A stretch of DNA of 20,000 nucleotides, taken from an uncultured virus (IMG/VR IMGVR_UViG_3300028835_002692). Lineage: Duplodnaviria > Heunggongvirae > Uroviricota > Caudoviricetes. A program made the translations under genes and the position numbers. Under the pieces are notes generated by a model. The model was not told the origin of the DNA. It did no database searches and saw only the letters and a program-made list of their open reading frames with translations. Below are positions 2,767 to 19,513 of this stretch, piece after piece. Position 1 is the stretch's first letter; each line of letters opens with the position of its first letter. The stretch lies in IMG/VR virus record IMGVR_UViG_3300028835_002692; one strand, given 5' to 3'.

Positions 2767-2946
2767 ATGAAGATTTGTGAGTATGAAAAGGTCACATGTC
2801 CTTATTGTCAAGAGGAAGACGAGCTGCAGGATGTCGGGAATGTAACGCTAAACAAGCCCAGTATTCCTTCTGCCAGCTTAGGACCCTGGCACTTCATTAC
2901 CTGTAAGGCTTGTGGCGGAGATTTCTGTATACCCTGTGCAGACTAA
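2767..2946 (+). CDS. small Zn-ribbon protein (59 aa, missing from ORF track)
   Basis: RBS TAAGGAGG then ATG 2767. Manual translation MKICEYEKVTCPYCQEEDELQ...HFITCKACGGDFCIPCAD* has two CxxC pairs. Confidence 0.75.
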   Translation: MKICEYEKVTCPYCQEEDELQDVGNVTLNKPSIPSASLGPWHFITCKACGGDFCIPCAD

Positions 2947-2965
2947 AAGGAAAGGAGGTGCTGTC

Positions 2966-3928
2966 ATGACAGGACAGACAGTGACGGCCAGCGTCAAGGT
3001 CGATGGTGATAAGCTGGCCGAAGCAATCAGAAGGGTAACTCCCTTCATGGCCGATGAGAGCCCACCCAGCTTGGCGTGCGTTTACGCCGAGTCCCAGGGT
3101 GGCGTTCTCCAGCTCACGACAACGGACGGGTACCGGATGGCTCACCTGACCGTGCCTCTGCCCTTCCCAGATGGTAACTATCTGATGAAAGGGGCGGGAG
3201 TCAAGGACTTCTCCACACGCCACTATAACGGCGCCGAGGTGACGGTCCAGGTCGGTGAGGGCGACAAGCTGGGGTTCATCGAGATAGGCGAGGTCACCGT
3301 AGGGCTCGAGACCAGCCCATACATCAACTATCCAGCCGCCGTCCCGGAGAGCTTTGACCTGGAGGCCATCATCGACACCAAGGCTTGGATAAAGCCCATT
3401 CGCCAGAACAAGTCCGAAGTGGTTGGTGTGGTCTACTCGTCTGCCGGCTGCCGAATTTACCTCCAGAACAGGGAGGGGGAAACGGTTGCCTGCGAGTCCC
3501 TACCGGTGCAGATGTTCTCCGGCCCGGACAAGAAGGTGGCCTACCATGCCGAACGTTTCAGGAGAGCCCTGACCAGCTGCGGTCCCAGCGCCACTATCCA
3601 GGTGGGCGACCCAGCTAAGGCTACTCTCTTTGAGGCCGAGGATTACTGGCACATCCTGACACCCTGGCAGGTCTTCCCCCGCGAGGTTAGCCTATCAAAC
3701 TCCGAGCGAGAGGCTATCAAGTGGGCCGAGGAAGCCCTAGAAGCTGTGCGCAAAGGAGAAGTCGCGGGCATTGTCCTCATCGGGGGCGGGAAATTCTACC
3801 TTGAGCTGCGACCCGGGCTGACCCAGACTCAGGTTCAAGTGCGTGAGCCGAAGCTAGCTGAGGAGCCTACAGCCGCCCCAGCTGAAGAGCCTGAACCAGA
3901 GGTGGAAGAAAGCACAAAGGAGGAATAG
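2966..3928 (+). CDS. DNA polymerase III beta (sliding clamp)-like protein, two clamp domains plus extra C-terminal region
   Basis: RBS AAAGGAGGTG before ATG 2966. LAEAIRRVTPFMADE...LQLTTTDGYRMA resembles the DnaN central domain (vaTDGhRLa); YINYPAAVP resembles the yPdy..viP linker; acidic tail. Confidence 0.75.
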   Translation: MTGQTVTASVKVDGDKLAEAIRRVTPFMADESPPSLACVYAESQGGVLQLTTTDGYRMAHLTVPLPFPDGNYLMKGAGVKDFSTRHYNGAEVTVQVGEGDKLGFIEIGEVTVGLETSPYINYPAAVPESFDLEAIIDTKAWIKPIRQNKSEVVGVVYSSAGCRIYLQNREGETVACESLPVQMFSGPDKKVAYHAERFRRALTSCGPSATIQVGDPAKATLFEAEDYWHILTPWQVFPREVSLSNSEREAIKWAEEALEAVRKGEVAGIVLIGGGKFYLELRPGLTQTQVQVREPKLAEEPTAAPAEEPEPEVEESTKEE

Positions 3929-3930
3929 CC

Positions 3931-4455
3931 ATGGGAAACACCACAGAAGGAGACCTCAGTGAGCTCGGTCTCCCACTCATGTATCAGAAACGGCTGAATC
4001 GAAACGGCATCACGACCATAAAGGAGCTCTGTGAGAAGTCTGAGCGGGACTTGTATTTCCTGCGGAACGTAGGTCACAAGTGCATCGAGGCGGTCAAGGA
4101 AGCCCTGGCAGCGAGGGGACTTTCCATATCGTCACCTACGGTAGCGCCGGCTCCTACCTGCATCTGCCCCGGGCGACCTGAGATGGAGCTGGTAGCGGAT
4201 ACCAGGAGGGGAACAATTTATGAGTGCGCAACCTGCAGTAGGCTCCTCTACCAGTCAAAGGTGGAACCTGTACAGACGTGGTATCGGCCTGAGATAACTT
4301 TTGGCGACCTACGGCTTGAAGTGTCTCAGAGGCACTGTAGCGCCTGTGACGGCCTTCAACTCCATGTCAGGGTAGAAGGGGGCTTGTGGCGGTGTCTCGC
4401 CTGTAGTTTAGTGGGTCGGGGCGATTTTAGCCAGAAATCACCAACAGGGTCTTGA
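3931..4455 (+). CDS. RNA polymerase alpha-CTD-like domain fused to Zn ribbons
   Basis: LSELGLP...RLNRNGITTIKELCEKSERDLYFLRNVGHKCIEAVKEALAARGL fits the alpha-CTD pattern. Followed by CICP/CATC and CSAC/CLAC. Confidence 0.85.
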   Translation: MGNTTEGDLSELGLPLMYQKRLNRNGITTIKELCEKSERDLYFLRNVGHKCIEAVKEALAARGLSISSPTVAPAPTCICPGRPEMELVADTRRGTIYECATCSRLLYQSKVEPVQTWYRPEITFGDLRLEVSQRHCSACDGLQLHVRVEGGLWRCLACSLVGRGDFSQKSPTGS

Positions 4456-7044: not shown

Positions 7045-7268
7045 ACAAGGTAGTTAATGCTCTTCGGAAGGTACCAGAGAAAAGGCTGCTCATCATCGAA
7101 CTGGCCAACAGCATCCCTATTAAGAACGGCCTCCTGGACTTAAAAGTCATGTCAGATAAGCAACGGGAAATCAACCTTGCGATAGCTGAGGCTAAAGCCT
7201 ATGGAAGCCGTACCATCATGGCGGTGGATGCCCTGGTCAGGGTGAGGGGCAGGAAGGAGGTGGACTGA
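7023..7268 (+). CDS. hypothetical helical protein within PRTRC cassette
   Basis: RBS GAGGAG; TGATG coupling to next gene. Confidence 0.75.
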   Translation: MSEAEDIDKVVNALRKVPEKRLLIIELANSIPIKNGLLDLKVMSDKQREINLAIAEAKAYGSRTIMAVDALVRVRGRKEVD

Positions 7269-8710
7269 TGTGGGACCTCGATACGATTATTCAGCAAAAC
7301 AACCAGGCTGCCATCAATTACATGATGAGAGGGCGGGAAGTTGATATAGCTCAATCTCCACAGCCACAGGCTTGGTCGCTATCCTTGCTTGCCGAGAAGT
7401 TGAGGGTCGGCCCACCGCTTCTGTCTGCACTCCTGCAGAGCTTCACGAACTTTGATATTCTGGAGAATTTCCTGGGTTTAATCAGGGAGTTTCTCCCAGA
7501 ACACGAAGAAGAAATCTTGTCAGAAGCTGGAGGGCGACGTGTGTATAGGTTCTGTTATCTCTTTGGTAAGAGATATTTCCCGCTGCCTCCTTACGCCTTC
7601 GAGGCTGACTATGGGCAACTCGTGAACGGCATGCCGATAGAGCTTATGGCTATGTCCTACTCAGCGTACCATGACCTTGATATGAGGCAGGGATATCTCT
7701 TGCTGCTGTCACTCATAATCTACCCCTACGAAGGTGATGAAAGAGACATGGAAAATGATGACGTTCCTTTTGACCCCTTCAATCCCATGGCACGCTTCAA
7801 TATGGAAGCAAAACTCGAAGGAATAGCGAACGTCAAGGACAAGAAATCGGAGTGGCGCCCAAAACGCTCTGACATCGCCTGGGTAAAGAATCTGGTTTTG
7901 ACTCTGGACGATGGGGGTAAATGGATTGCCCCGATGGGGTTTACCTTCATCAAAATCGATGACCGTAATATCGAACTGAGACAGGCCGAGAATACGCCTG
8001 CAGTCCGGGAGACGGTACATCGAACCGTGTTAATCGCAGAAAAGGCCGGCCTCAAAGTTAAAGTTAAGGTCGGAGAAACGGCAGAAGAGAAACAGGGAAA
8101 GACACTTATGGAAGTCTTCAGTGGAGCCCGGGTGCCACTCCTCGACGCGGTGCAGCGGATTGTCGGTGAAGACCTGGCCAGGAGACTACCACGGGACGGC
8201 TGGGAGCCCTCTGAGTTGCACCTGATGACCGATGGGACACCGCATGACGGAGTGGGCCACTTCGCTGATTGGGCGTGTTCTGAAACAGGGTGTGTCATCA
8301 TGGATTCGAGCTATGAAGATTGTGAATTCATGGAAGGGATGGGAGAGCCGTTATTCAAATGGACGCAGTTTAATGTTGATACCCTGACCAAAGAATGGCC
8401 CAAGGTTCAGGAAATCTGGCAGAAAATAGACCATATGGTTGAATGGCTGGAAGCCGACCCGATAAGTCACTTCGGGGAGCTCCTGGAGTTTCTGACGGCA
8501 AAGGCCGCATCCAAACTGAAGAAAACCGCTAAAGCAAGGGGCAAGAGCTTCTACGACCCCACCGAGCATTGGTGCCCCTTAGACCAACAAGGCGAAATTG
8601 ATGAGGAGGAATACGATGGTGAAGACGAAGGTGGACTCGAGCTCGAAGAAGGTGAAACCCGACTCCGGCGAGCAACCAGAGACGACATCCAAGCCGCCCT
8701 CCAGTTTTAG
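7268..8710 (+). CDS. 480-aa protein in the position of PRTRC protein F
   Basis: RBS AAGGAGGTG; lies between the Ubl and E2-like genes; acidic C-tail. Family assignment is positional only. Confidence 0.7.
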   Translation: MWDLDTIIQQNNQAAINYMMRGREVDIAQSPQPQAWSLSLLAEKLRVGPPLLSALLQSFTNFDILENFLGLIREFLPEHEEEILSEAGGRRVYRFCYLFGKRYFPLPPYAFEADYGQLVNGMPIELMAMSYSAYHDLDMRQGYLLLLSLIIYPYEGDERDMENDDVPFDPFNPMARFNMEAKLEGIANVKDKKSEWRPKRSDIAWVKNLVLTLDDGGKWIAPMGFTFIKIDDRNIELRQAENTPAVRETVHRTVLIAEKAGLKVKVKVGETAEEKQGKTLMEVFSGARVPLLDAVQRIVGEDLARRLPRDGWEPSELHLMTDGTPHDGVGHFADWACSETGCVIMDSSYEDCEFMEGMGEPLFKWTQFNVDTLTKEWPKVQEIWQKIDHMVEWLEADPISHFGELLEFLTAKAASKLKKTAKARGKSFYDPTEHWCPLDQQGEIDEEEYDGEDEGGLELEEGETRLRRATRDDIQAALQF

Positions 8711-9374
8711 ATGGGCGGTACCGGAAGAGTTGGGCATCCCACCTGACGCGCTGAGACTGAGGCTGGACTTTCACCACCAGGCGGTGGAGATGACCTTCTT
8801 TGAGGGAGATATCGCAACCAGCAAGCCCGTCTCGGCTATGGACGTAGCGCATGCCCTGGCCAGCGAGCTGTCGTTTGGCTCCGGGCTATTACCGCCTGGG
8901 TCTATCTGGTGGCGAAACACGAGGAGTGGGACTGTGGTCGCGCTCTACGTCGAGAAACACATCAGGCAACTGGCGCTGCAGACGGATATTAAGAAACCGC
9001 CCCGTCGGTACAAGGTACCGATGCCCGGGCTCATCTTTCTCTGCCGGCCTGGGATAGCACCCTGGGTCTTTGCGGTGAAGAGGAAGCCGACGAAGGAGAC
9101 GGATATCGTCTATCGGGCTCCGCTGGCCAACATCCATGCCAACGGCCGATCCTGTGCGGGCACCCATAAATATCCCACCCGCCTCGAGGACATGGTTCAG
9201 TCCTTCTTCACCTCATTCTTCAGCGCGACGGCTGACCTGCATAATCGGTCAAAGCAATTCCCTGGGAATGTGATTCACCTGTGGGAGTTCCTGAACGACA
9301 AGAAGAAGTACCCGCTGGCGGATCTGGTCGAACATGGCACAATAAGTGACCTTATGGATATGGAGATGGACTGA
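8616..9374 (+). CDS. Prokaryotic E2 family D protein (PRTRC system protein B)
   Basis: RBS GAGGAGG 8603-9 then ATG 8616. GLLPPG, VPMPGLIF, VFAVKRKP, YRAPLANIHANGRSCAG (Cys at 9153), FFTSFFS. Confidence 0.88.
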   Translation: MVKTKVDSSSKKVKPDSGEQPETTSKPPSSFRWAVPEELGIPPDALRLRLDFHHQAVEMTFFEGDIATSKPVSAMDVAHALASELSFGSGLLPPGSIWWRNTRSGTVVALYVEKHIRQLALQTDIKKPPRRYKVPMPGLIFLCRPGIAPWVFAVKRKPTKETDIVYRAPLANIHANGRSCAGTHKYPTRLEDMVQSFFTSFFSATADLHNRSKQFPGNVIHLWEFLNDKKKYPLADLVEHGTISDLMDMEMD

Positions 9375-10105
9375 TGAATATGGTCGGATATCTGACGCAG
9401 CACCCCGACGGGCTGAAGGGTGAACGGGGACTGTACTACGACTATGTCCTGGCGTCCAACGGCCTCTTCATCGAGGCCGAGGGAAAGCGGATGGCAGCCC
9501 GGGTACCCGTCGCTGGGTGCGAGGTTAGGGGACTGGCGCCGCTAGAGCCAAAGTTTGTCCTGCGCTATGGCCGCATCCCGCAGCGTTTCTTCGACCTGGC
9601 GCTGAGTACGTTCCTGGTAGATACGAGCAAGGAGCGGTACGTGGCGGTGACCTGGCAAGATGGCTACCACCTGTACGTTCCGGAGCAGGAGACCGAGGAA
9701 GCCAAGGTCGAGTACCAGGTGGGAGATAGCATCGCCCTGGAGCTCCACTCCCACGGCAAGATGTCGGCCATGTTCAGCACGAAGGATAATAAGGACGAGA
9801 CTGGGATGAAGCTCTACGGAGTCGTCGGAAAGCTCGACGGAACCCCGGTCGTTCAACTGCGGGTTGGGGTCTATGGCTACTTTCACCCCGTACCTTGGGT
9901 TGACGTTTTCGACGGTTATCTGATGGGAGCCGAGGATTGGTTAGAGACCTCTCTTTTAGGCATAGAAGAGAAGGAGGTGATAGACGACGATGAGTTATAC
10001 AGTGTGCTTGTCGGACAGCCTGGGAGCCCCGAAAATCGTGGTGGTTGGCTGCGGCGGCACTGGTGGTTTTGTCGTCGAGGGTCTGTGCCGGCTATTGATG
10101 TATAG
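9374..10105 (+). CDS. JAB/JAMM metallopeptidase (PRTRC system protein A)
   Basis: YVLASNGLF N-terminus; upstream Glu in KERY; JAMM motif ELHSHGKMSAMFSTKDNKDE (HSH at 9746-9754); LYGVVGKLD...LRVGVYGYF. Confidence 0.92.
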   Translation: MNMVGYLTQHPDGLKGERGLYYDYVLASNGLFIEAEGKRMAARVPVAGCEVRGLAPLEPKFVLRYGRIPQRFFDLALSTFLVDTSKERYVAVTWQDGYHLYVPEQETEEAKVEYQVGDSIALELHSHGKMSAMFSTKDNKDETGMKLYGVVGKLDGTPVVQLRVGVYGYFHPVPWVDVFDGYLMGAEDWLETSLLGIEEKEVIDDDELYSVLVGQPGSPENRGGWLRRHWWFCRRGSVPAIDV

Positions 10106-10850
10106 CGACCTGGACATTCTCCTGGTCGACCATGACCGTGTGGAGCCCCACAACCTGTGGAGGCAGAACTTTTTTGAGGGAGACGTGGGCAAGTTCAAGT
10201 CCCAGGCCCTCGCCGAGCGCATGGCACGGCAGTATGGTCGTCCGGTAGGCTACAGTGTCTATCCCTATGACCGCGACCAGCTCAATGAGGCTTCCGGGAT
10301 TGGGATGCGCATGGTAAAGGGCATCATCATCGGCTGCGTCGACAATGCTGGCGCCAGGCGGAGCATCGCCGAAAGTATTTCATGGGGGGACTGGTGGCTG
10401 GATGCGGGAAACGGGCATCAATCCGGCCAGGTCCTCATCGGCAATACCAAGAGTGTAGAAAATCTTGAGGAGGCGTTTGACGAAACGGGGCAGACGGTTG
10501 ACCATCTGCCGCTGCCGTCTCTCCAGCTCCCCTCGCTCCTGCACCAGCCAACTAAGCCCGTAACACGGCGGCAGGACTGCGCCGAAGCGGTGGAAGATGA
10601 GGAACAAAGTCCGACGATAAATCAGACGATGGCAACTCTGGTTATAGAGTTTATGTATCGTCTCCTGAAAGGCACACTGACCTGGATGGGGGCTTACATA
10701 GACATGGAGGCGGGAACACTCACGACCGTACCGGCTGAACCCGAGACGGTCGCCAGGATGTTCGGGGTAAAGGTCGATACCCTATGCAGCCATGAGGAGG
10801 GCTGCCATATAGGTGGCAGACGTCAAATGCAGGGAAGAAGGCGAAGGTGA
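9990..10850 (+). CDS. ThiF/E1-like ubiquitin-activating enzyme (PRTRC ThiF family)
   Basis: VVGCGGTGG; LVDHDRVEPHNLWRQNF; GKFKS; GCVDN..ARR; WLDAGN...GQV; DCAEA (Cys at 10578); RBS AAGGAGGTG. Confidence 0.95.
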   Translation: MSYTVCLSDSLGAPKIVVVGCGGTGGFVVEGLCRLLMYSDLDILLVDHDRVEPHNLWRQNFFEGDVGKFKSQALAERMARQYGRPVGYSVYPYDRDQLNEASGIGMRMVKGIIIGCVDNAGARRSIAESISWGDWWLDAGNGHQSGQVLIGNTKSVENLEEAFDETGQTVDHLPLPSLQLPSLLHQPTKPVTRRQDCAEAVEDEEQSPTINQTMATLVIEFMYRLLKGTLTWMGAYIDMEAGTLTTVPAEPETVARMFGVKVDTLCSHEEGCHIGGRRQMQGRRRR

Positions 10851-11633: not shown

Positions 11634-11643
11634 GGAGGTGACC

Positions 11644-11982
11644 ATGCTTGATGAAGAGACTAGGGCTCGGCTGGTAGCCCTGGGGAGAAAGCTAAAACAG
11701 CGAAGGCGGGAGAGAGAGATGACGCTTCAGGCTCTTAGCAAGGCTTCTGGGGTGCATACTTCATACCTGGGAAGAATTGAGAGAGCTCAGCGTCGTCCCT
11801 CTGCTCCTGTCCTGCGCCAGATAGCCGGGCCTCTAGGGTTCACGGAGGTTGAGCTCCTGAAGACGGTTGGCTACCTCTCACCTGACAGGACTGATGATAG
11901 GCTTGTCAAGTTCAAGGAGTCCATGAAGGGTGAGATAAAGGTGGCGATGGCTAACCTGATGGAGAAAGTCGATACTCTGTAA
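11644..11982 (+). CDS. XRE-family HTH transcriptional regulator
   Basis: LGRKLKQRRREREMTLQALSKASGVHTSYLGRIERAQRRPS; RBS GGAGG before ATG 11644. Confidence 0.92.
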   Translation: MLDEETRARLVALGRKLKQRRREREMTLQALSKASGVHTSYLGRIERAQRRPSAPVLRQIAGPLGFTEVELLKTVGYLSPDRTDDRLVKFKESMKGEIKVAMANLMEKVDTL

Positions 11983-12637: not shown

Positions 12638-13567
12638 GTGCTAAGAGTAAGAACGGCAGGACCGCTGGGCTACTGCTTCGGCGTCTCCCAGGCCATTGAG
12701 AAGGCCATTAAATATGCGGAAGAGCATGGGAAAGTCTATAGCTGGGGTACACTTGCTCACAATGAAGATGTTGTAGACCTGCTACGTCGGCATGGGGTGG
12801 AGCCTATCAAAGCAGAAGATATGGGTTCCGTGTCGCATGTCGCTATAACCGCCCATGGAGCCCCACCTGAACTCTATAAGAGGTTCGAGGATGCAGGCTT
12901 GCATATACTTGACTGCACCTGTCCCATCGTTCGGAAAGCCCAGAAGGTGGTAAGCCAGCAGCTGGACGGCTTCGACATCGTCATATTCGGGGACCGAGAC
13001 CATCAGGAGGTCATCGGCCTTAATGGGTGGGCAAAGGGCGCCAAGTTCGTCGGCAACTTCAACGACCTGTTTACACCGGGACAAGACTTCAAGGAACTGA
13101 AGCTGAGTAGAAAGGTCGGGATTATCAGCCAGACTACAAAGATACACTCCCAGTTCGCGGACTTCGTGACAACCCTGGTCAACCGCAACATTGAACGGCT
13201 GAACGAGGTCAGGATACTCAACACCATCTGCCCGATAGTGGCAGCCCGGGTCAATGAGACCCGAAAGTTATCTCAGGACGTGGATATGATGTTCGTGGTC
13301 GGCTCTCAGGAGTCGGCAAACACCAAGAACCTGGCTGATGTCTCCAGACCATGGGTAAGCTCCCAGTTCGTCTACATCGTCCAGGACACAGACCAGATAG
13401 GGCATGCCCTGAGCGACTGGTATGTGGAAAACGAGATGGCTTTCCCGAGAGTCGGTGTCACCGCGGGTACCTCAACACCGATAGAGGTGGTGAAGGAAGT
13501 GGTTAATAAGCTGAAGGAGCTGCTGTATGAACGTGAAAGTGGTGATCAATGTCAAGGAGACGAGTAA
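12638..13567 (+). CDS. ispH: 4-hydroxy-3-methylbut-2-enyl diphosphate reductase (IspH/LytB)
   Basis: GYCFGV, AHN, TAHG, DCTCPIV, GDRDHQEV, SQTT, NTIC, SANT, GVTAGTSTP. The three Fe-S Cys and the catalytic His/Glu/Thr/Ser/Asn positions are present. RBS AAAGGAG, GTG start. Confidence 0.95.
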   Translation: MLRVRTAGPLGYCFGVSQAIEKAIKYAEEHGKVYSWGTLAHNEDVVDLLRRHGVEPIKAEDMGSVSHVAITAHGAPPELYKRFEDAGLHILDCTCPIVRKAQKVVSQQLDGFDIVIFGDRDHQEVIGLNGWAKGAKFVGNFNDLFTPGQDFKELKLSRKVGIISQTTKIHSQFADFVTTLVNRNIERLNEVRILNTICPIVAARVNETRKLSQDVDMMFVVGSQESANTKNLADVSRPWVSSQFVYIVQDTDQIGHALSDWYVENEMAFPRVGVTAGTSTPIEVVKEVVNKLKELLYERESGDQCQGDE

Positions 13568-15257: not shown

Positions 15258-15482
15258 ATGATAACAGTTTTCTTTGAAGATGACGGACAGGATTTCCTAG
15301 AATGGGATATCAACGATAAAGGAGAGGTTGTGGGTTGCCGGCCGCTCCAGGGCGACATTTGGATTGGCACGAAGGTCCAGAACAAAGATATCCAACCTGG
15401 TGACCACCTCGACATCACTACGACAGATGGCATCAACCGACATGTGATTCACGCCGTAGAGAAAGTTCAGGAGCTTGTCTGA
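15258..15482 (+). CDS. hypothetical protein
   Basis: RBS GGGAGGT; FEDDGQDFLEWDI...GCRPLQ..IWIG motif. Confidence 0.75.
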   Translation: MITVFFEDDGQDFLEWDINDKGEVVGCRPLQGDIWIGTKVQNKDIQPGDHLDITTTDGINRHVIHAVEKVQELV

Positions 15483-15485
15483 AGG

Positions 15486-15520
15486 ACTAAGCGTATAAGG
15501 TGGATTATACGCAGAGGAGG
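15486..15520. repeat. 35-bp palindromic element, copy 1 (ACTAA-GCGTATAA-N6-TTATACGC-AGAGGAGG)
   Basis: Perfect 8-bp inverted arms with a 6-bp spacer; 27/29 identity to 19207-19241 outside the spacer. Confidence 0.85.
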
Positions 15521-15524
15521 CTAA

Positions 15525-15719
15525 ATGCAGGTCTATCTAACTGAACAAAGTGCGGATATCGTGTTGAACGAGAAAGAGGTGCAGGACCTCGTTGAGGGCA
15601 AGGAGGTGATTGGAAACCCTGATACTGAATTTTTATCCCCCTTTGGGAAGAGGATTGTCATAATCAGAAAAGGAGAGAGGTGTACCCATGAAAGAAAGGT
15701 TCAAGGTCTGCGCCCATGA
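15525..15719 (+). CDS. hypothetical protein
   Basis: RBS GAGGAGG (3' end of the repeat). Confidence 0.65.
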   Translation: MQVYLTEQSADIVLNEKEVQDLVEGKEVIGNPDTEFLSPFGKRIVIIRKGERCTHERKVQGLRP

Positions 15720-15888
15720 CCAGCTGCCGGGCAAGATGATGGTCGAATACTGGCGGGATGGTGAGTTTATCGCCACTATCTACCCCCATCTCGACGGCAT
15801 CCGCATCGTGAGCAAATACCTGGATGGCGTGAGTATGGAACCCAACTACCCACCGGCGGCCGTTGTCAAGCTATCGGGAGGAGGCTAA
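15688..15888 (+). CDS. hypothetical protein
   Basis: RBS GAGGTG. Confidence 0.7.
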   Translation: MKERFKVCAHDQLPGKMMVEYWRDGEFIATIYPHLDGIRIVSKYLDGVSMEPNYPPAAVVKLSGGG

Positions 15889-15891
15889 CGT

Positions 15892-16074
15892 ATGAAGGTG
15901 GTTAAGGTCAACTTTGCTGGCATAGAGAAGAGTAAGGACGGGAAGCTGTCTATCATCTATATCCCGAACCAGACCCAGATGCTCCGTGCCGGGCAGAAGT
16001 ACCAAATCGTAATCGAAGGGCTTACCTACGAGGAGTGGGGGCGTGGCAAGAAAGCCGACAGACCTGCCCGATGA
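15892..16074 (+). CDS. hypothetical protein
   Basis: RBS GGAGGAGG. Confidence 0.65.
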   Translation: MKVVKVNFAGIEKSKDGKLSIIYIPNQTQMLRAGQKYQIVIEGLTYEEWGRGKKADRPAR

Positions 16075-16510
16075 GGTGAAGGACGCCGTAGTGCGTGACT
16101 ACCTGGCCGGGGCTAAAACCGTAGTCATCCAGTGGGAACACGGGGTCACCCCGGGCACGATGTACCGCATCCTTCATGCGGCGAAGGTCAGGCTAAGAGT
16201 TGATAGCCGCAAGCCTGAACTACAGGTGGATAGCGGCTTCCGAGCTGCCGTAAGGGAATGGGTGGCGACGGAGGAGAATGACACACTGGAGCAAGGCGGG
16301 GAAAAGCTGGCGGAGCTATTGGATGAGTATTTGAAGAAGGAACCTGCAAAGACTCTAATCGCTCTGGGCATCGGGGACAAGCCATTTACGCCGGAGGACC
16401 TTCTTAGAGGCAGTTTGCAGGTTCTTGTTGAAGAAACCCTAGACCATTACCCCTGCTTTGTGCGGGTTGGTGATGACCAATGGAAAGTACGCAAAGGAGG
16501 TGATGCTTAA
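16043..16510 (+). CDS. HTH DNA-binding protein
   Basis: LPDEVKDAVVRDYLAGAKTVVIQWEHGVTPGTMYRILH resembles a resolvase/homeodomain-like HTH; RBS GAGGAG. Confidence 0.7.
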   Translation: MARKPTDLPDEVKDAVVRDYLAGAKTVVIQWEHGVTPGTMYRILHAAKVRLRVDSRKPELQVDSGFRAAVREWVATEENDTLEQGGEKLAELLDEYLKKEPAKTLIALGIGDKPFTPEDLLRGSLQVLVEETLDHYPCFVRVGDDQWKVRKGGDA

Positions 16511-16511
16511 G

Positions 16512-16919
16512 ATGAGGCTATTTATCAAAGTTGGCGGCCGGGATAAGCTCATCAGCAAAGCTAAAGACGGTGGCGGATTCCAGACCATTGAGGTCCTGGT
16601 CACCAACAACTTTGAACTAGCGGTCCCGGAGTGGGAGCGTAAAGACTGGCTTGAGCTTTATCCCTCGTGGGATTATCGGACTCTCAAAGCAGACGGCATG
16701 CAGTGTGGCGCCCTGATGGCCCTAATACTTCAGGCTAACCCGGCGGCACAAGGAATTCTCGACAGTTTCGGGAAGCAACTCGCGACCATAAAGAAGGCGG
16801 CCGAGGAAGAAGCGGGGGTGACGAAAGAAATCTTACCTGGTGGGATGCTAAAGATTACCGATAGGGACGGCAATGTGTTTACCAGGCTACCCTACCCGGA
16901 TGAGATTAAGGGAAACTGA
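16512..16919 (+). CDS. hypothetical protein
   Basis: RBS AAAGGAGGTG; start at 16503 or 16512. Confidence 0.7.
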   Translation: MRLFIKVGGRDKLISKAKDGGGFQTIEVLVTNNFELAVPEWERKDWLELYPSWDYRTLKADGMQCGALMALILQANPAAQGILDSFGKQLATIKKAAEEEAGVTKEILPGGMLKITDRDGNVFTRLPYPDEIKGN

Positions 16920-17191
16920 TGTCCGAAGAGCGCACGTGGGAACTTAAAGCCCGAATAAGCGAAGACGTGAAGGAAAAACTCGAGGCCCTGGCAGAGCGCC
17001 GGTATGGCAACAGGAGCCACGAGTCGAAGTCCTTTGTTGTTGAGGATATCCTGCGCTGGAAGCTAGATAGCTGGCGGCAGCATGACATCAGCCTGGGTGA
17101 TTGGTTCTGGCTCCTGATAAAGGAGCGGGCGCCTATCTCTTTGTTAAAGGAAATCGCCTGGGGTAAACTAATTGAGGGGTATTTCGATTAA
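16919..17191 (+). CDS. ribbon-helix-helix DNA-binding protein
   Basis: ELKARISEDVKEKLEALAERR...KSFVVEDIL fits the RHH pattern. Confidence 0.65.
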   Translation: MSEERTWELKARISEDVKEKLEALAERRYGNRSHESKSFVVEDILRWKLDSWRQHDISLGDWFWLLIKERAPISLLKEIAWGKLIEGYFD

Positions 17192-17203
17192 GAAGGAGGA
17201 GAC

Positions 17204-18196
17204 ATGACCTACAGTGTAGCCGAGCGGGAGCTCATGTTCCGGAACCTGGCCGGCAACCCAGTCGCCAGGCGTGTCGCCGAGAGAGCTCTGCGAATCGAAG
17301 ACGAAGAGGAGGCCAAACGTCGGGAAAAGCCTGAAATGTATCCATGGTCTGGCTTTGAGTGGTCAGACATCCCGGCTCAGACAGCAGTCCTTAATCAGTT
17401 CGTCATTGATGAACTCCTGGTCACCGGTGGTCCGAGAGGTACCTACCGCAGCCGGTCGACAACAGCCTACAAGCTTAAAGACCCCGAGCTGGTGAGGGAG
17501 TGCCTGGAGAAGCTAGATGAGATTGAGGAGGGCGTTGAAGAAGGAGATATCCCACCTGACCTGTTTGACTTCATCCTCGGCCATGAGAAGGTGAAAGACC
17601 TGATCTGGAAGAGCATCAATGCCGAGCGACCGGTACACATACTAATGGTCGGACCGCCCGCATCAGCCAAGTCTATGTTTCTGGGAGAGCTGGCCCGGCT
17701 ACCGTTTTCCCGCTTCACTCTTGGAGGTGGTACCTCAAAGGCGGGGCTTGCCGATTTCCTGCTAGAGTTTCGCCCGCGGTACCTAATCATTGACGAGATA
17801 GACAAGATGCCAATGACTGAACAGAGCATTCTCCTCTCGCTGATGGAGAGCGGAATTGTGGCCAGGCTAAAGAAGCGGATGAGGGAAATTGAGACCATAA
17901 CTACTACGGTGTTCGCCGCGGCTAACCGGGATAACACAATGTGGGCCGAACTGAAGAGTCGATTCTTCGACATTCACCTGAAGGAATACTCGGAGGCTGA
18001 CTTCGTCAACATATCTAGGGCAGTTCTCATGACCAGGGAGAAGGTTGACCCCGGGTTGGCCACCCTTATCGCCGGGCTACTGTCTCGATATACCAGGGAC
18101 GTGCGTGATGCCATTCACTTCGGTAGGCTGTGTAAGACTGAGGAAGATGTCAGGAGCCTCCTGCAGCTTAAATTCCCCAGCAGGGGGTTATTTTAG
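17204..18196 (+). CDS. AAA+ ATPase (MCM/RuvB-like motifs) with N-terminal winged-helix-like region
   Basis: Walker A GPPASAKS (17651); SKAGL; Walker B IIDEIDKM; LLSLMESG; sensor-1 AAAN; Arg finger LKSRF; sensor-2 DVRD. Confidence 0.9.
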   Translation: MTYSVAERELMFRNLAGNPVARRVAERALRIEDEEEAKRREKPEMYPWSGFEWSDIPAQTAVLNQFVIDELLVTGGPRGTYRSRSTTAYKLKDPELVRECLEKLDEIEEGVEEGDIPPDLFDFILGHEKVKDLIWKSINAERPVHILMVGPPASAKSMFLGELARLPFSRFTLGGGTSKAGLADFLLEFRPRYLIIDEIDKMPMTEQSILLSLMESGIVARLKKRMREIETITTTVFAAANRDNTMWAELKSRFFDIHLKEYSEADFVNISRAVLMTREKVDPGLATLIAGLLSRYTRDVRDAIHFGRLCKTEEDVRSLLQLKFPSRGLF

Positions 18197-18508
18197 ATGA
18201 AAGACTGGCTGTGGCTCGTTAAGACGAGCAAGGGTGACTTCTTCATAACCGTGATAGGAAAGTGGACTCAGGAAGAGGCTGCCGAGAAAATCCGGCTAAC
18301 ATTCGCTCGAATAAAGCTCGACATCACCGCCATGATTCCGAGAAAACGAGTCACCGGTCCCGATGATGCGATGGGCACTATATATGAGCCGGAGGAGCCA
18401 AAGGACGAGCTGGGGTTCTCTTTCTTGGGAGGTAAGAAACTCTGGGAAGCCTGCGGCCGGGGAGTCGAATACCAGGCTGAGCTGATACGCTTAAAGAAGG
18501 AGGGATGA
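18197..18508 (+). CDS. hypothetical protein
   Basis: Abuts the ATPase stop. Confidence 0.65.
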   Translation: MKDWLWLVKTSKGDFFITVIGKWTQEEAAEKIRLTFARIKLDITAMIPRKRVTGPDDAMGTIYEPEEPKDELGFSFLGGKKLWEACGRGVEYQAELIRLKKEG

Positions 18509-18512
18509 TCGA

Positions 18513-18911
18513 ATGACTCAATTCTTTACTCCAGGGCAGACGGTTTACCTTCTTTACTGGAGAAGACGAGAGGAGAGCGAATTAACCCGGGTGCAAATCT
18601 TTGTCTCGAAACGACGTCGCGATAATGCTAATGTCGACCTCTTAGCCTGGGGACTGATAACAATGACCGCCACATGGGAAATCCCTACCCCTGTAAAGGT
18701 GCCGTTTGAGCTTCTGAGCCGTAACCTGAAGGAGGTGAAAACAACGCCGAATTGCCCCAAATGCGGAGCGTCCATGGAGTGCCTCTATCATGGTAAAGGG
18801 ACAGAGCAATGGGTTTGCCCAAATGCCTGTGATAGCACTCTTGACGAAGTGCTTAAGAAAGCGGACAGACTGGCCCGCCAAGTGCTAGGTGATGATGAAC
18901 TATGCGTCTAG
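18513..18911 (+). CDS. hypothetical protein with Zn ribbon
   Basis: RBS AAGGAGG; CPKCGASM...WVCPNAC. Confidence 0.7.
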   Translation: MTQFFTPGQTVYLLYWRRREESELTRVQIFVSKRRRDNANVDLLAWGLITMTATWEIPTPVKVPFELLSRNLKEVKTTPNCPKCGASMECLYHGKGTEQWVCPNACDSTLDEVLKKADRLARQVLGDDELCV

Positions 18912-18938
18912 CTTTAACGAAGGGATTTGCCATAGCTA

Positions 18939-19211
18939 ATGATACCACTAACGCCGCGCGAGTTTGAGATACTGAAATACGTCGCAGGAGGCAATGGCAA
19001 CAAGGCCATTGCTAACCAACTCAAGATTAGCGAGCAAGTCATCAAGAATCATATCTCTCTAATCATGTATAAGCTGGCAGCCAACGACCGAACACATGCT
19101 GTAGTACTAGCAATAGAAGCTGGCTTGATGAAAACCACAGATGCCATCATGTTAGGGCGGCGGAGGCGTCTGATGTCTAGGTTGCCCAGAGCAGGAGAGA
19201 CTTTCTACTAA
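18939..19211 (+). CDS. stand-alone LuxR-family HTH regulator
   Basis: LTPREFEILKYVAGGNGNKAIANQLKISEQVIKNHISLIMYKLAANDRTHAV; no receiver domain. Confidence 0.92.
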   Translation: MIPLTPREFEILKYVAGGNGNKAIANQLKISEQVIKNHISLIMYKLAANDRTHAVVLAIEAGLMKTTDAIMLGRRRRLMSRLPRAGETFY

Positions 19212-19241
19212 GCGTGTAATTGACGTTATACGCAAAGGAGG
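19207..19241. repeat. 35-bp palindromic element, copy 2 (ACTAA-GCGTGTAA-N6-TTATACGC-AAAGGAGG)
   Basis: Matches 15486-15520; includes the LuxR stop codon and the RBS of the next gene. Confidence 0.85.
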
Positions 19242-19249
19242 TATTGAAG

Positions 19250-19513
19250 ATGTGCTGGAAGGATGAGTGGGCCAAAGCGGTGAACAACCTCTCATGGGCC
19301 ATAATACATACGGAGAGGGCTCAAGTCAAGCTCGAGAAGAAAAGGCGATTCCCAGGGGTTGACGAGTGCAAGGAGGTAATCACTGACCTAAGGCAGAGAC
19401 AGGAACAGCTCAAGGAGATGATAGAGAAGTATGGGATAACAAGAGCTGAGAAACCGGCGATGACCGAGAATTCAATGGCTGGCCGCAGAACATCTAGTGG
19501 GAAACCATGGTAG
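19250..19513 (+). CDS. hypothetical coiled-coil protein
   Basis: RBS AAGGAGGT then ATG 19250. Confidence 0.7.
   Translation: MCWKDEWAKAVNNLSWAIIHTERAQVKLEKKRRFPGVDECKEVITDLRQRQEQLKEMIEKYGITRAEKPAMTENSMAGRRTSSGKPW

Follow-up and report, generated by a model that had tools for sequence, protein, structure and literature searches.

We describe a family of 22-bp palindromes that occupies gene junctions in an uncultured, phage-like group of elements from sediment and subsurface metagenomes. Two copies lie in a 20,000-nt stretch of DNA, hereafter the window, from an uncultured virus of the Caudoviricetes (IMG/VR record IMGVR_UViG_3300028835_002692). The palindromes have a uniform anatomy, occur in many copies, are restricted to phage-like elements, are conserved in sequence without covariation and act as fixed points between which the cargo genes have been replaced. 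Judging from these sequence comparisons, we tentatively propose that each palindrome is an operator-like site for a dimeric DNA-binding regulator and doubles as an anchor for the exchange of gene cassettes, a reading that we favour while giving it somewhat less than an even chance. A preliminary description of the window had seen the two copies as a pair and had offered three readings of them: recombinase sites defining a gene cassette, operators for a dimeric regulator, or RNA hairpins controlling translation.

Copies in the window and in related elements

The two stretches, 15486-15520 and 19207-19241, had been described as matching at 27 of 29 positions outside a variable 6-nt spacer, and a gapless alignment bears this out. 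The two differences are A/G in arm 1 and G/A directly before GGAGG, and the spacers are GGTGGA in copy 1 and TTGACG in copy 2. Each site is a 22-base palindrome, GCGTRTAA-N6-TTATACGC, followed by ARAGGAGG and a start codon. Both are indeed intergenic and 5' of AGGAGG, in short gaps (~40 nt) that separate open reading frames (ORFs) on the + strand: the gap of copy 1 runs from a stop codon at 15480-15482 to the ATG at 15525, and that of copy 2 from a stop codon at 19209-19211 to the ATG at 19250. A scan of the window allowing ≤3 mismatches gives four matches (two sites on two strands) against 0.09 expected, and 0/200 shuffled sequences reach four.

The proteins of the window recur on metagenome contigs of ~76-77 kb, and a search of metagenome contigs with its AAA+ protein returned 30 loci (loci and contigs are cited below by our own L and G labels). 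One of these, L043, is 99.98% identical to the window over a 12.8-kb overlap and extends 8.2 kb past the window end; window positions equal L043 positions + 7203. L043 has nine copies of the palindrome at ≤3 mismatches, of which those at 8288 and 12009 are the window sites and the other seven (13143, 13752, 14788, 15019, 15243, 19359 and 19590) lie past the window end. Among the relatives, L053 has eight copies, L047 seven, L042 three and L057 two, and seven shorter loci have one each. None was found in L046, L048, L051 or L054, nor in the distant loci L059-L070, and a single 3-mismatch match in L058 was taken for chance. Our tabulated set, which omits L041, a sequence that duplicates L043, as well as copy-free loci and L058-L070, comprises 53 copies across 17 sequences, many of them orthologous and so not independent. 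The further copies that the preliminary description had suggested looking for are present in both the contig and its relatives. Its picture of two sites bracketing one 3.7-kb module has to be given up, since these are merely two of at least nine copies in the genome and of 53 in relatives.

Outside this group, a scan of one genome per species for the palindrome followed by ARAGGAG returned five stretches in four metagenome-assembled genomes (MAGs), labelled Chloroflexota, Anaerolineales, Ignavibacteria and Aenigmatarchaeota, plus one IMG/VR contig (G004). In these MAGs, of 1.5-5.3 Mb each, all matches with ≤1 mismatch are confined to the phage-like contig or contigs (five on G001:C48, four on G002:C327, three on G003:C19 and one on each of four small contigs of G005), and a reversed control pattern gave none. 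The inner core GTRTAA-N6-TTAYAC is restricted in the same way. G001:C48 encodes a primase, HNH endonucleases, a PAPS reductase and a baseplate-like protein. The bare palindrome matches 40 IMG/VR contigs once each; apart from L025, which is the same as G004, these matches are chance-like, with an adjoining ribosome-binding site only in L023 and L039. A bacterial host is suggested by the peptide deformylase and the ribosome modulation factor-like protein among the cargo of these elements; since MAG binning of such contigs is unreliable, the MAG labels are an uncertain guide to its phylum.

The copies are not spread evenly over the elements. In L043, L047 and L053, the left part, with genes for a 480-aa protein, E2, JAB, ThiF, XRE and LytB, is syntenic and has zero copies. 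The first copy comes after the last conserved gene; beyond it, the loci have in common just the AAA+ gene and a few small genes, and for most genes the other loci compared offer no homologue. Homology between L043 and L047 then restarts after the last copy and a terminator-like hairpin. With the left region syntenic and copy-free and the right region mosaic, the palindromes therefore populate a hyperplastic accessory arm. The strong hairpin that closes the array is itself conserved (L043 19627-19652; L047 17090-17125), and homology restarts right after it.

Sequence constraint on arms, spacer and flanks

The family consensus is GCGTRTAA-N6-TTAYACGC, with a spacer of 6 nt in 53/53 copies, never 5 or 7. 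In the 52 distinct copies with flanks, 10 of the 16 positions in the two 8-bp arms are invariant. Variation in one arm is mirrored in the other: position 5 of arm 1 is A in 38, G in 12 and T in 2, and its counterpart in arm 2 is T in 38, C in 10, A in 3 and G in 1, while the outermost pair has G in 45 and A in 6 on one side against C in 48 and T in 3 on the other. Conservation of the arms ends at 8 bp on the left, where every position from -20 to -2 carries ≤0.3 bit; on the right it goes on solely as the ribosome-binding site, with the consensus A (83%), R, A (85%) and then GGAGG. Within the spacer, base 1 is never A and base 6 never T, which is symmetric, but positions 3 and 4 do not mirror each other.

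The orthologues of copy 1 allow a direct comparison of these parts. In eight loci they keep 16/16 arm bases, while the flanking genes have 65-83% DNA identity and most spacer positions change (GGTGGA, GATGGA, GATGAG, TATGGA, CAAGGG, CGGGGG, TAGGGG). The arms being kept while the spacer and the flanking genes have diverged, the arm sequence is therefore under selection and the centre is free.

Every copy is oriented with the co-directional genes that flank it. The stop codon of the longest upstream frame falls within arm 1, whose last bases are TAA, in 25 copies and 0-3 nt ahead of it in 21, a total of 46/53 that is biased towards finding a stop because the longest nearby-ending frame is taken. 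In 40/53, the palindrome is followed at 10-19 nt by a start codon that has a Shine-Dalgarno-like motif. Where the gap between genes is longer, the palindrome lies near the stop in some cases (L043 13752, 19590; L047 17060; L053 12454, 13175) and near the ribosome-binding site in others (L043 19359, L047 11229, L056 59), and is therefore tied to neither.

Solitary arms, some with a spacer, also occur by ribosome-binding sites (L043 14417; L047 12363, 12601; L049 3472; G002; G003 (L080) 10926) and look like decayed copies. The 11 found compare with ~16 expected by chance in 258 kb, and their placement alone is telling.

Pairing was assessed on the 53-copy alignment, in which 94.8% of cells pair against 94.7% in shuffles, with 222/500 shuffles scoring as high. 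The sole pair that varies much is AU in 28, GU in 10, GC in 1, UA in 1 and unpaired in 13. The A-to-G change in arm 1 (12/52), which keeps pairing as G-U, is about as common as the T-to-C change in arm 2 (10/52), which breaks it, and compensatory change amounts to merely 3 cells altered on both sides. Pairing no better than in shuffles, together with mirror-symmetric variation, argues against an RNA hairpin selected for its structure, and a selected arm sequence around a free centre is characteristic of double-stranded DNA that is read at two half-sites by a dimer. The preliminary description had held that covariation without sequence conservation would favour the hairpin; we see sequence conserved without covariation, by which its own hairpin reading is weakened. 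Of its three readings, the operator for a dimeric regulator fits best, with conserved arms, a free spacer, mirror-symmetric degeneracy and no covariation, but we could not assign the regulator.

Replacement of cargo between conserved anchors

Whether gene content changes exactly at the sites had also been posed as a check, and it does: the same anchors enclose unrelated cargo in three intervals (Table 1). In close relatives the anchors, told apart by their spacers, keep their order (TTGRCG, TGGGTA, GAGAGG; and CCTACG, TATTGG). DNA similarity within the intervals is confined to the palindrome, plus a ribosome-binding site of ~7 nt at the left anchor, and comparison of cargo with cargo at the protein level gave no match below E 0.01. 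In L053, two palindromes stand 42 nt apart (start to start) at 13175-13238 with no gene between them; the corresponding copies in L047 are 1281 nt apart, and a short word is duplicated at the junction.

Individual spacers recur in different elements, with TGGGTA occurring seven times, CCTACG, TTGGCG and GAGAGG four times each, and GGGCTG, GCTACA and TATTGG three times each, mostly with unrelated gene families on both sides. The copy 2 spacer TTGACG is also found in L042, and its variant TTGGCG in L047, L057, G001 and G002. Spacer order is different in G001, G002 and G004, which are more distant, and one spacer is inverted relative to the genes in G002. Spacer repeats within one locus number 1 against 3.95 expected (P about 0.05), a marginal value that is confounded by orthology.

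We also compared the contigs of four metagenome runs with L043. Among 15 listed joints, with 22 more beyond these, 13 end at a palindrome on at least one side and nine on both. The short sides of the joints measure 19-31 nt, about the length of the repeat, and come from contigs, not reads; what the joints show is that the samples contain mosaic relatives, and they give evidence of neither excision nor circles. Junctions that lack a palindrome, such as those from copy 1 up to the AAA+ gene, are likewise often shuffled, and one gene family (f02) is found behind different anchors.

A putative operator array and its binder

Under the operator reading, a homodimeric, sequence-specific protein, most likely an element-encoded helix-turn-helix (HTH) regulator, would bind the double-stranded palindrome, with each monomer reading one 8-bp arm and the 6-bp centre remaining uncontacted. 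Binding at many junctions of a one-directional array would switch the accessory arm on or off as a block, either as a roadblock to RNA polymerase or by control of local initiation. The palindromes would at the same time serve as anchors for gene exchange between co-infecting relatives, a role that we attach to them because the copies are the only sequence common to these junctions. The binding itself, the identity of the binder and the transcriptional effect of binding are what we infer here.

Two kinds of protein are candidates. The 3' end of a GerE/LuxR gene abuts a palindrome in both the window and G004 (47% identical), and L042 encodes a further such protein; an XRE protein is common to the window's contig, L047 and L053. 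Aligning the three GerE proteins revealed the usual family-wide residues only, and no unusually conserved recognition helix. A second palindrome family, GCGTTC-N7-GAACGC, is interleaved with the first on G001:C48 (L078), with three copies at 36223, 36424 and 38343, two directly before a ribosome-binding site and the third ~22 nt before one. Two palindrome classes on one contig are easily explained by two regulators, and less so by one recombinase.

Several observations weigh against an operator. Neither GerE nor XRE was found in all motif-bearing contigs, most of which are incomplete, and no binder was identified. The motif is identical among elements that share almost no genes (G001, G003 and G004 versus the window), whereas phage repressor-operator pairs usually drift together; such identity points to a very conserved or host-encoded factor, and would also fit a recent spread of the sites themselves. 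A pure regulatory site does not predict the recurrence of identical spacers between unrelated genes, and an operator does not require the near-fixed distance to the ribosome-binding site seen in 40/53 copies. The last copy of the array precedes a GC-rich, terminator-like hairpin and not a gene (L043 19590, L047 17060), the spacer is G-rich on the coding strand and hence not strand-symmetric, and a consensus promoter scan found nothing at the sites, with no promoter-like elements.

Alternative explanations

Exchange may instead be the primary function, catalysed at the sites, which is the most interesting of the rivals and, in our judgement, an unlikely one. The palindromes would then be true recombination sites, like dif, pdif or heterospecific lox sites, at which host Xer or a tyrosine recombinase of the element swaps cassettes between co-infecting relatives; the arms would be bound, cuts made at the edges of the 6-nt centre, and self-deletion limited by differing spacers. 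If anything slightly less likely is a natural lox/dif-like array, in which a tyrosine recombinase exchanges cassettes between co-infecting phages at matching spacers and differing spacers prevent self-deletion; the enzyme may be host Xer or be encoded in an unseen part of the genome. The 8-6-8 layout with its inner core ATAA-N6-TTAT would suit such sites, but the 8-bp arms are fully symmetric, without distinct XerC and XerD halves, and in the four MAGs, which are incomplete and uncertainly binned, the inner core GTRTAA-N6-TTAYAC occurs nowhere else and gives no sign of a matching host dif. Six-frame searches with PF00589 (tyrosine recombinase) and PF00239 (serine recombinase) found neither on G004 (estimated 86% complete) nor on G001:C48, and Pfam and PHROGs scans of called ORFs, which covered the window, L043 and parts of L047 and L053, found no recombinase, with ~49 kb of the window's own ~77-kb contig lying outside this coverage. 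Two tyrosine-recombinase matches were obtained on G003:C19, one of which adjoins a repeated tRNA-like end. Ordered anchors around wholly different cargo, with the palindrome and ribosome-binding site as the sole similarity, are what cassette exchange would leave behind, as are identical 22-mers, spacer included, in unrelated elements with different flanking genes; yet shuffling is equally common at palindrome-free junctions, family f02 stands behind different anchors, and the second palindrome family in G001 would require a second enzyme. The scarcity of spacer repeats within a locus and the inverted spacer in G002 also speak for recombination, as do the 13/15 listed joints that end at a palindrome, although joints with short sides of 19-31 nt may merely be repeat matches from relatives. 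The cassette reading of the preliminary description is partly supported, in that gene content changes exactly at the sites; against it, neither a tyrosine nor a serine recombinase was found on two motif-bearing contigs, and the core was not found at any host site.

An RNA hairpin in a polycistronic mRNA seems to us improbable. It could insulate the ribosome-binding site or lay it open, link translation to the stop codon upstream, or, as the target of a sequence-specific RNA-binding protein, be a signal for processing or stability. The hairpin is stable alone (-9.8 kcal/mol where it is the sole structure, in one fold) and appears in 7/7 minimum-energy folds, but z-scores in five ribosome-binding-site contexts are weak (-0.7 to -2.8) and no Rfam family matches the palindrome. 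The proximity of stop and start codons (46/53 and 40/53) would suit translational control; half-sites nevertheless persist by ribosome-binding sites, so single genes manage without the stem. The G-rich spacer, biased on the coding strand only, and the last copies, which precede a terminator and would be transcribed, also favour RNA, against which stand the missing covariation, a middle pair broken in 13/53 copies and a pair-breaking T-to-C (10) as common as the pair-keeping A-to-G (12). Hairpin-binding proteins typically read loops, the opposite of a conserved stem with a free loop. We give a shade less credence to the palindrome as a promoter complete in itself, served by a transcription apparatus that is modified or specific to the element; transcripts would begin within arm 2 or immediately behind it, and their short leader would contain the ribosome-binding site. 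In agreement with this, ribosome-binding site and start codon follow at a nearly constant distance, arm 1 has a TATAA stretch, the sites are confined to one functional genome arm, and the window encodes a sigma-region-4-like GerE protein and an RNA polymerase alpha-CTD-like protein (C-terminal domain). However, the base after TATAA is never A and otherwise free, the 20 nt scored upstream are unconserved (the scored stretch ends just short of where a -35 element would be), the consensus promoter scan is blank, and perfect two-fold symmetry is no promoter property; two copies would fire directly into a terminator, and the L053 pair has no gene between its members. Very improbable, finally, is a selfish miniature palindromic repeat, similar to repetitive extragenic palindromic (REP) elements, that spreads between junctions without function for the element. 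Identical 22-mers in unrelated contexts and decayed half-copies would be expected of it, but the rest of the four MAGs has no copies, the regions scanned yielded no transposase of any kind, and orthologous arms are perfectly kept while spacers and flanking genes diverge, which indicates selection.

Three further candidates were rejected: a host REP element, as all copies in the four MAGs are on phage-like contigs; an intrinsic terminator, as the stem is not followed by a T-run; and a sigma-70 promoter, as there is no consensus at the sites and no upstream conservation.

Comparison with known systems

The palindromes resemble dif, pdif and lox sites in their inverted arms, 6-nt centre, ATAA...TTAT core, several copies per replicon and changes of gene content. 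Xer dif and pdif sites have arms of about 11 bp, distinct XerC and XerD halves and a central region of 6-8 nt. Our palindromes differ in their symmetric 8-bp arms, which lack the XerC/XerD asymmetry, and neither a recombinase partner nor a matching host site was found. Integrons are a further parallel: there, too, mostly small orphan genes are arrayed in one direction, with palindromic sites abutting stop codons. Integron attC sites, however, are much longer, imperfect palindromes that are recognised by structure and not by sequence; we see no integron integrase or attI, and up to ten genes lie between sites. Unlike REP elements and bacterial interspersed mosaic elements (BIMEs), which have hundreds of copies on host chromosomes and a RAYT transposase, the copies described here are only on phage-like contigs, and no transposase was seen.

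Closer parallels come from phages. The extended start-associated sequences (ESAS) of Cluster K mycobacteriophages are, in the accounts cited, imperfect 17-bp inverted repeats with a 4-13 bp spacer and a consensus that varies by subcluster (PMC3203893, PMC12699233). According to the description in PMC3203893, departures within the repeats do not support RNA pairing, from which the authors inferred DNA-binding sites; the function is still unproven there. As far as these accounts go, ESAS and the start-associated sequences (SAS) are alike to our palindromes in being inverted-repeat pairs with a variable spacer directly upstream of a conserved block of ribosome-binding site and start codon, and in having many copies per genome, in one orientation and confined to one genome half (for ESAS, the non-structural half). 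The likeness is architectural only: the sequences are unrelated and the hosts differ. Set against the ESAS so described, the palindromes here have near-perfect 8-bp arms, a spacer that is always 6 nt and a sequence that is constant across elements sharing almost no genes. They also mark points of cargo exchange, which ESAS are not reported to do in the passages cited (PMC3203893, PMC12699233).

The promoter early stem-loops (PeSLs) of T4-type phages combine, in the sections of the source that treat them, a sigma-70-type promoter with a GC-rich terminator stem-loop, and exchange there proceeds by homologous recombination (PMC2839356). On that description they too are short, conserved, intergenic stem-loop repeats in hyperplastic regions rich in small orphan genes, and the ends of insertions, deletions and replacements between relatives fall at the repeats. 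Unlike PeSLs, our palindromes have no promoter consensus and no T-run, and their conserved part is the stem sequence itself. The stoperators of Cluster A mycobacteriophages are described as numerous, distributed repressor-binding sites at which binding terminates transcription elongation (PMC9283540). The same account portrays them as asymmetric and bound by a monomeric, two-domain repressor (PMC9283540). Termination of elongation at dispersed sites, as so described, is the mode of action that we propose here, but our palindromes are two-fold symmetric. Under our favoured reading, control of the accessory arm would be of the stoperator or ESAS kind, and the role as anchors for cassette exchange would parallel that of PeSLs. 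The palindromes are a fresh variant within the PeSL, ESAS and stoperator kind of phage feature; we found no description of the motif in the literature, in a search that was aimed at known analogues and not exhaustive.

The window and its genes

All plausible genes of the window are on the + strand. By PHROG and Pfam matches, they include genes for Ku-like, ATP-dependent ligase, clamp-like and RNA polymerase alpha-CTD-like proteins and an E2/JAB/ThiF set, followed by an XRE HTH protein, LytB/IspH, an MCM/RuvB-like AAA+ ATPase and a stand-alone GerE/LuxR protein. The main features are listed in Table 1. Among the genes between the two sites, the AAA+ ATPase and the LuxR/GerE gene of the preliminary description are confirmed; its 'HTH' gene at 16043-16510 (155 aa) has a weak PHROG DNA-binding match only, and neither Pfam nor NCBIfam supports a ribbon-helix-helix fold for 16919-17191.

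Table 1. Features of the palindrome sites and their surroundings, with intervals of replaced cargo
Feature	Position in window	Strand	Remarks
XRE-type HTH gene, candidate trans-acting factor	11638..11982	+	conserved left region; homologues in L047, L053
74-aa gene upstream of copy 1 (phrog_27241)	15258..15482	+	stop 9 nt before palindrome 1
Palindrome copy 1	15491..15512	.	GCGTATAA-GGTGGA-TTATACGC; first of array, left border of variable accessory-gene region
Shine-Dalgarno stretch and ATG (15525) of 64-aa ORF 15525-15719	15513..15527	+	AGAGGAGG
Ten co-directional genes between copies 1 and 2	15525..19211	+	AAA+ ATPase the one conserved; rest mosaic among relatives
AAA+ ATPase	17204-18196	+	Pfam MCM, AAA_5
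Stand-alone LuxR/GerE-type HTH, 90 aa	18939..19211	+	TAA stop abuts palindrome 2
Palindrome copy 2	19212..19233	.	GCGTGTAA-TTGACG-TTATACGC
Shine-Dalgarno stretch and ATG (19250) of 87-aa ORF 19250-19513	19234..19252	+	AAAGGAGG
Interval TTGRCG to TGGGTA			cargo 1112, 342, 216 nt in loci compared
Interval TGGGTA to GAGAGG			cargo 1623, 769, 1973 nt in loci compared
Interval CCTACG to TATTGG			cargo 1259 nt in L047, 20 nt in L053

In the RNA fold predicted for window 19191-19245, the AAAGGAGG belonging to the downstream gene pairs, around the hairpin of copy 2, with a C/U-rich stretch that closes the GerE gene; the z-score is -0.86 only, and this pairing is peculiar to copy 2.

AAA+ proteins 77-99% identical to that of the window are encoded in L041, L042 and L044-L057, and homologues 34-67% identical on three of the four motif-fetched contigs compared (G002, G003 and G004; not G001:C48). 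L054 and L055 have close AAA+ homologues despite almost no palindrome copies there. Matches of the AAA+ protein are confined to MCM/RuvB-type cores and are uninformative on the palindromes. A phage collection gave no match to the window DNA or the AAA+ protein, and IMG/VR gave no AAA+ relative.

The left part of the window contains two further blocks. Genes for a Ku-like protein and an ATP-dependent DNA ligase, then for a clamp-like protein and an RNA polymerase alpha C-terminal domain protein, occupy 2-1608 and 2912-4455; the Ku-to-clamp block is also found in L054 and L055, both without a palindrome array. These two loci thus share the AAA+ gene and the Ku-ligase-clamp block with the window, and no repeated palindrome of their own was found. 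At 7268-10850, the gene for the 480-aa protein stands ahead of genes that match Prok-E2_D, Prok-JAB (weakly) and the ThiF family, a ubiquitin-like conjugation set within a phage-like gene array that is kept in L047 and L053. Host-like cargo comprises LytB/IspH in the window (12638-13567) and, in relatives, a peptide deformylase, a weak ribosome modulation factor match and a GHMP kinase (L047 9085-9579, 11005-11202, 14768-15547; L053 8850-9341). On G003:C19 (L080 1-70; L082), a stretch resembling the 3' part of a tRNA is repeated at both contig ends, and 217-1119 is a tyrosine integrase gene; this fits a temperate or circularly assembled element.

Significance

For phages beyond the reach of cultivation, gene control and gene exchange can be approached in few ways, and conserved intergenic repeats offer one of them. 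The family described here stands out in three respects: the same 22-mer, including its 'free' spacer, occurs across elements with almost no common genes; close relatives keep the order of the sites while all that lies between them is replaced; and host-like genes are among the cargo, for instance those for peptide deformylase, a GHMP kinase and a ribosome modulation factor-like protein. As operators, the palindromes would delimit a regulon that covers the accessory arm in these phages. As recombination sites, they would constitute a new cassette-exchange system, and a lox/dif-like array would mean recombinase-mediated cassette exchange, or an integron-like system, in phages.

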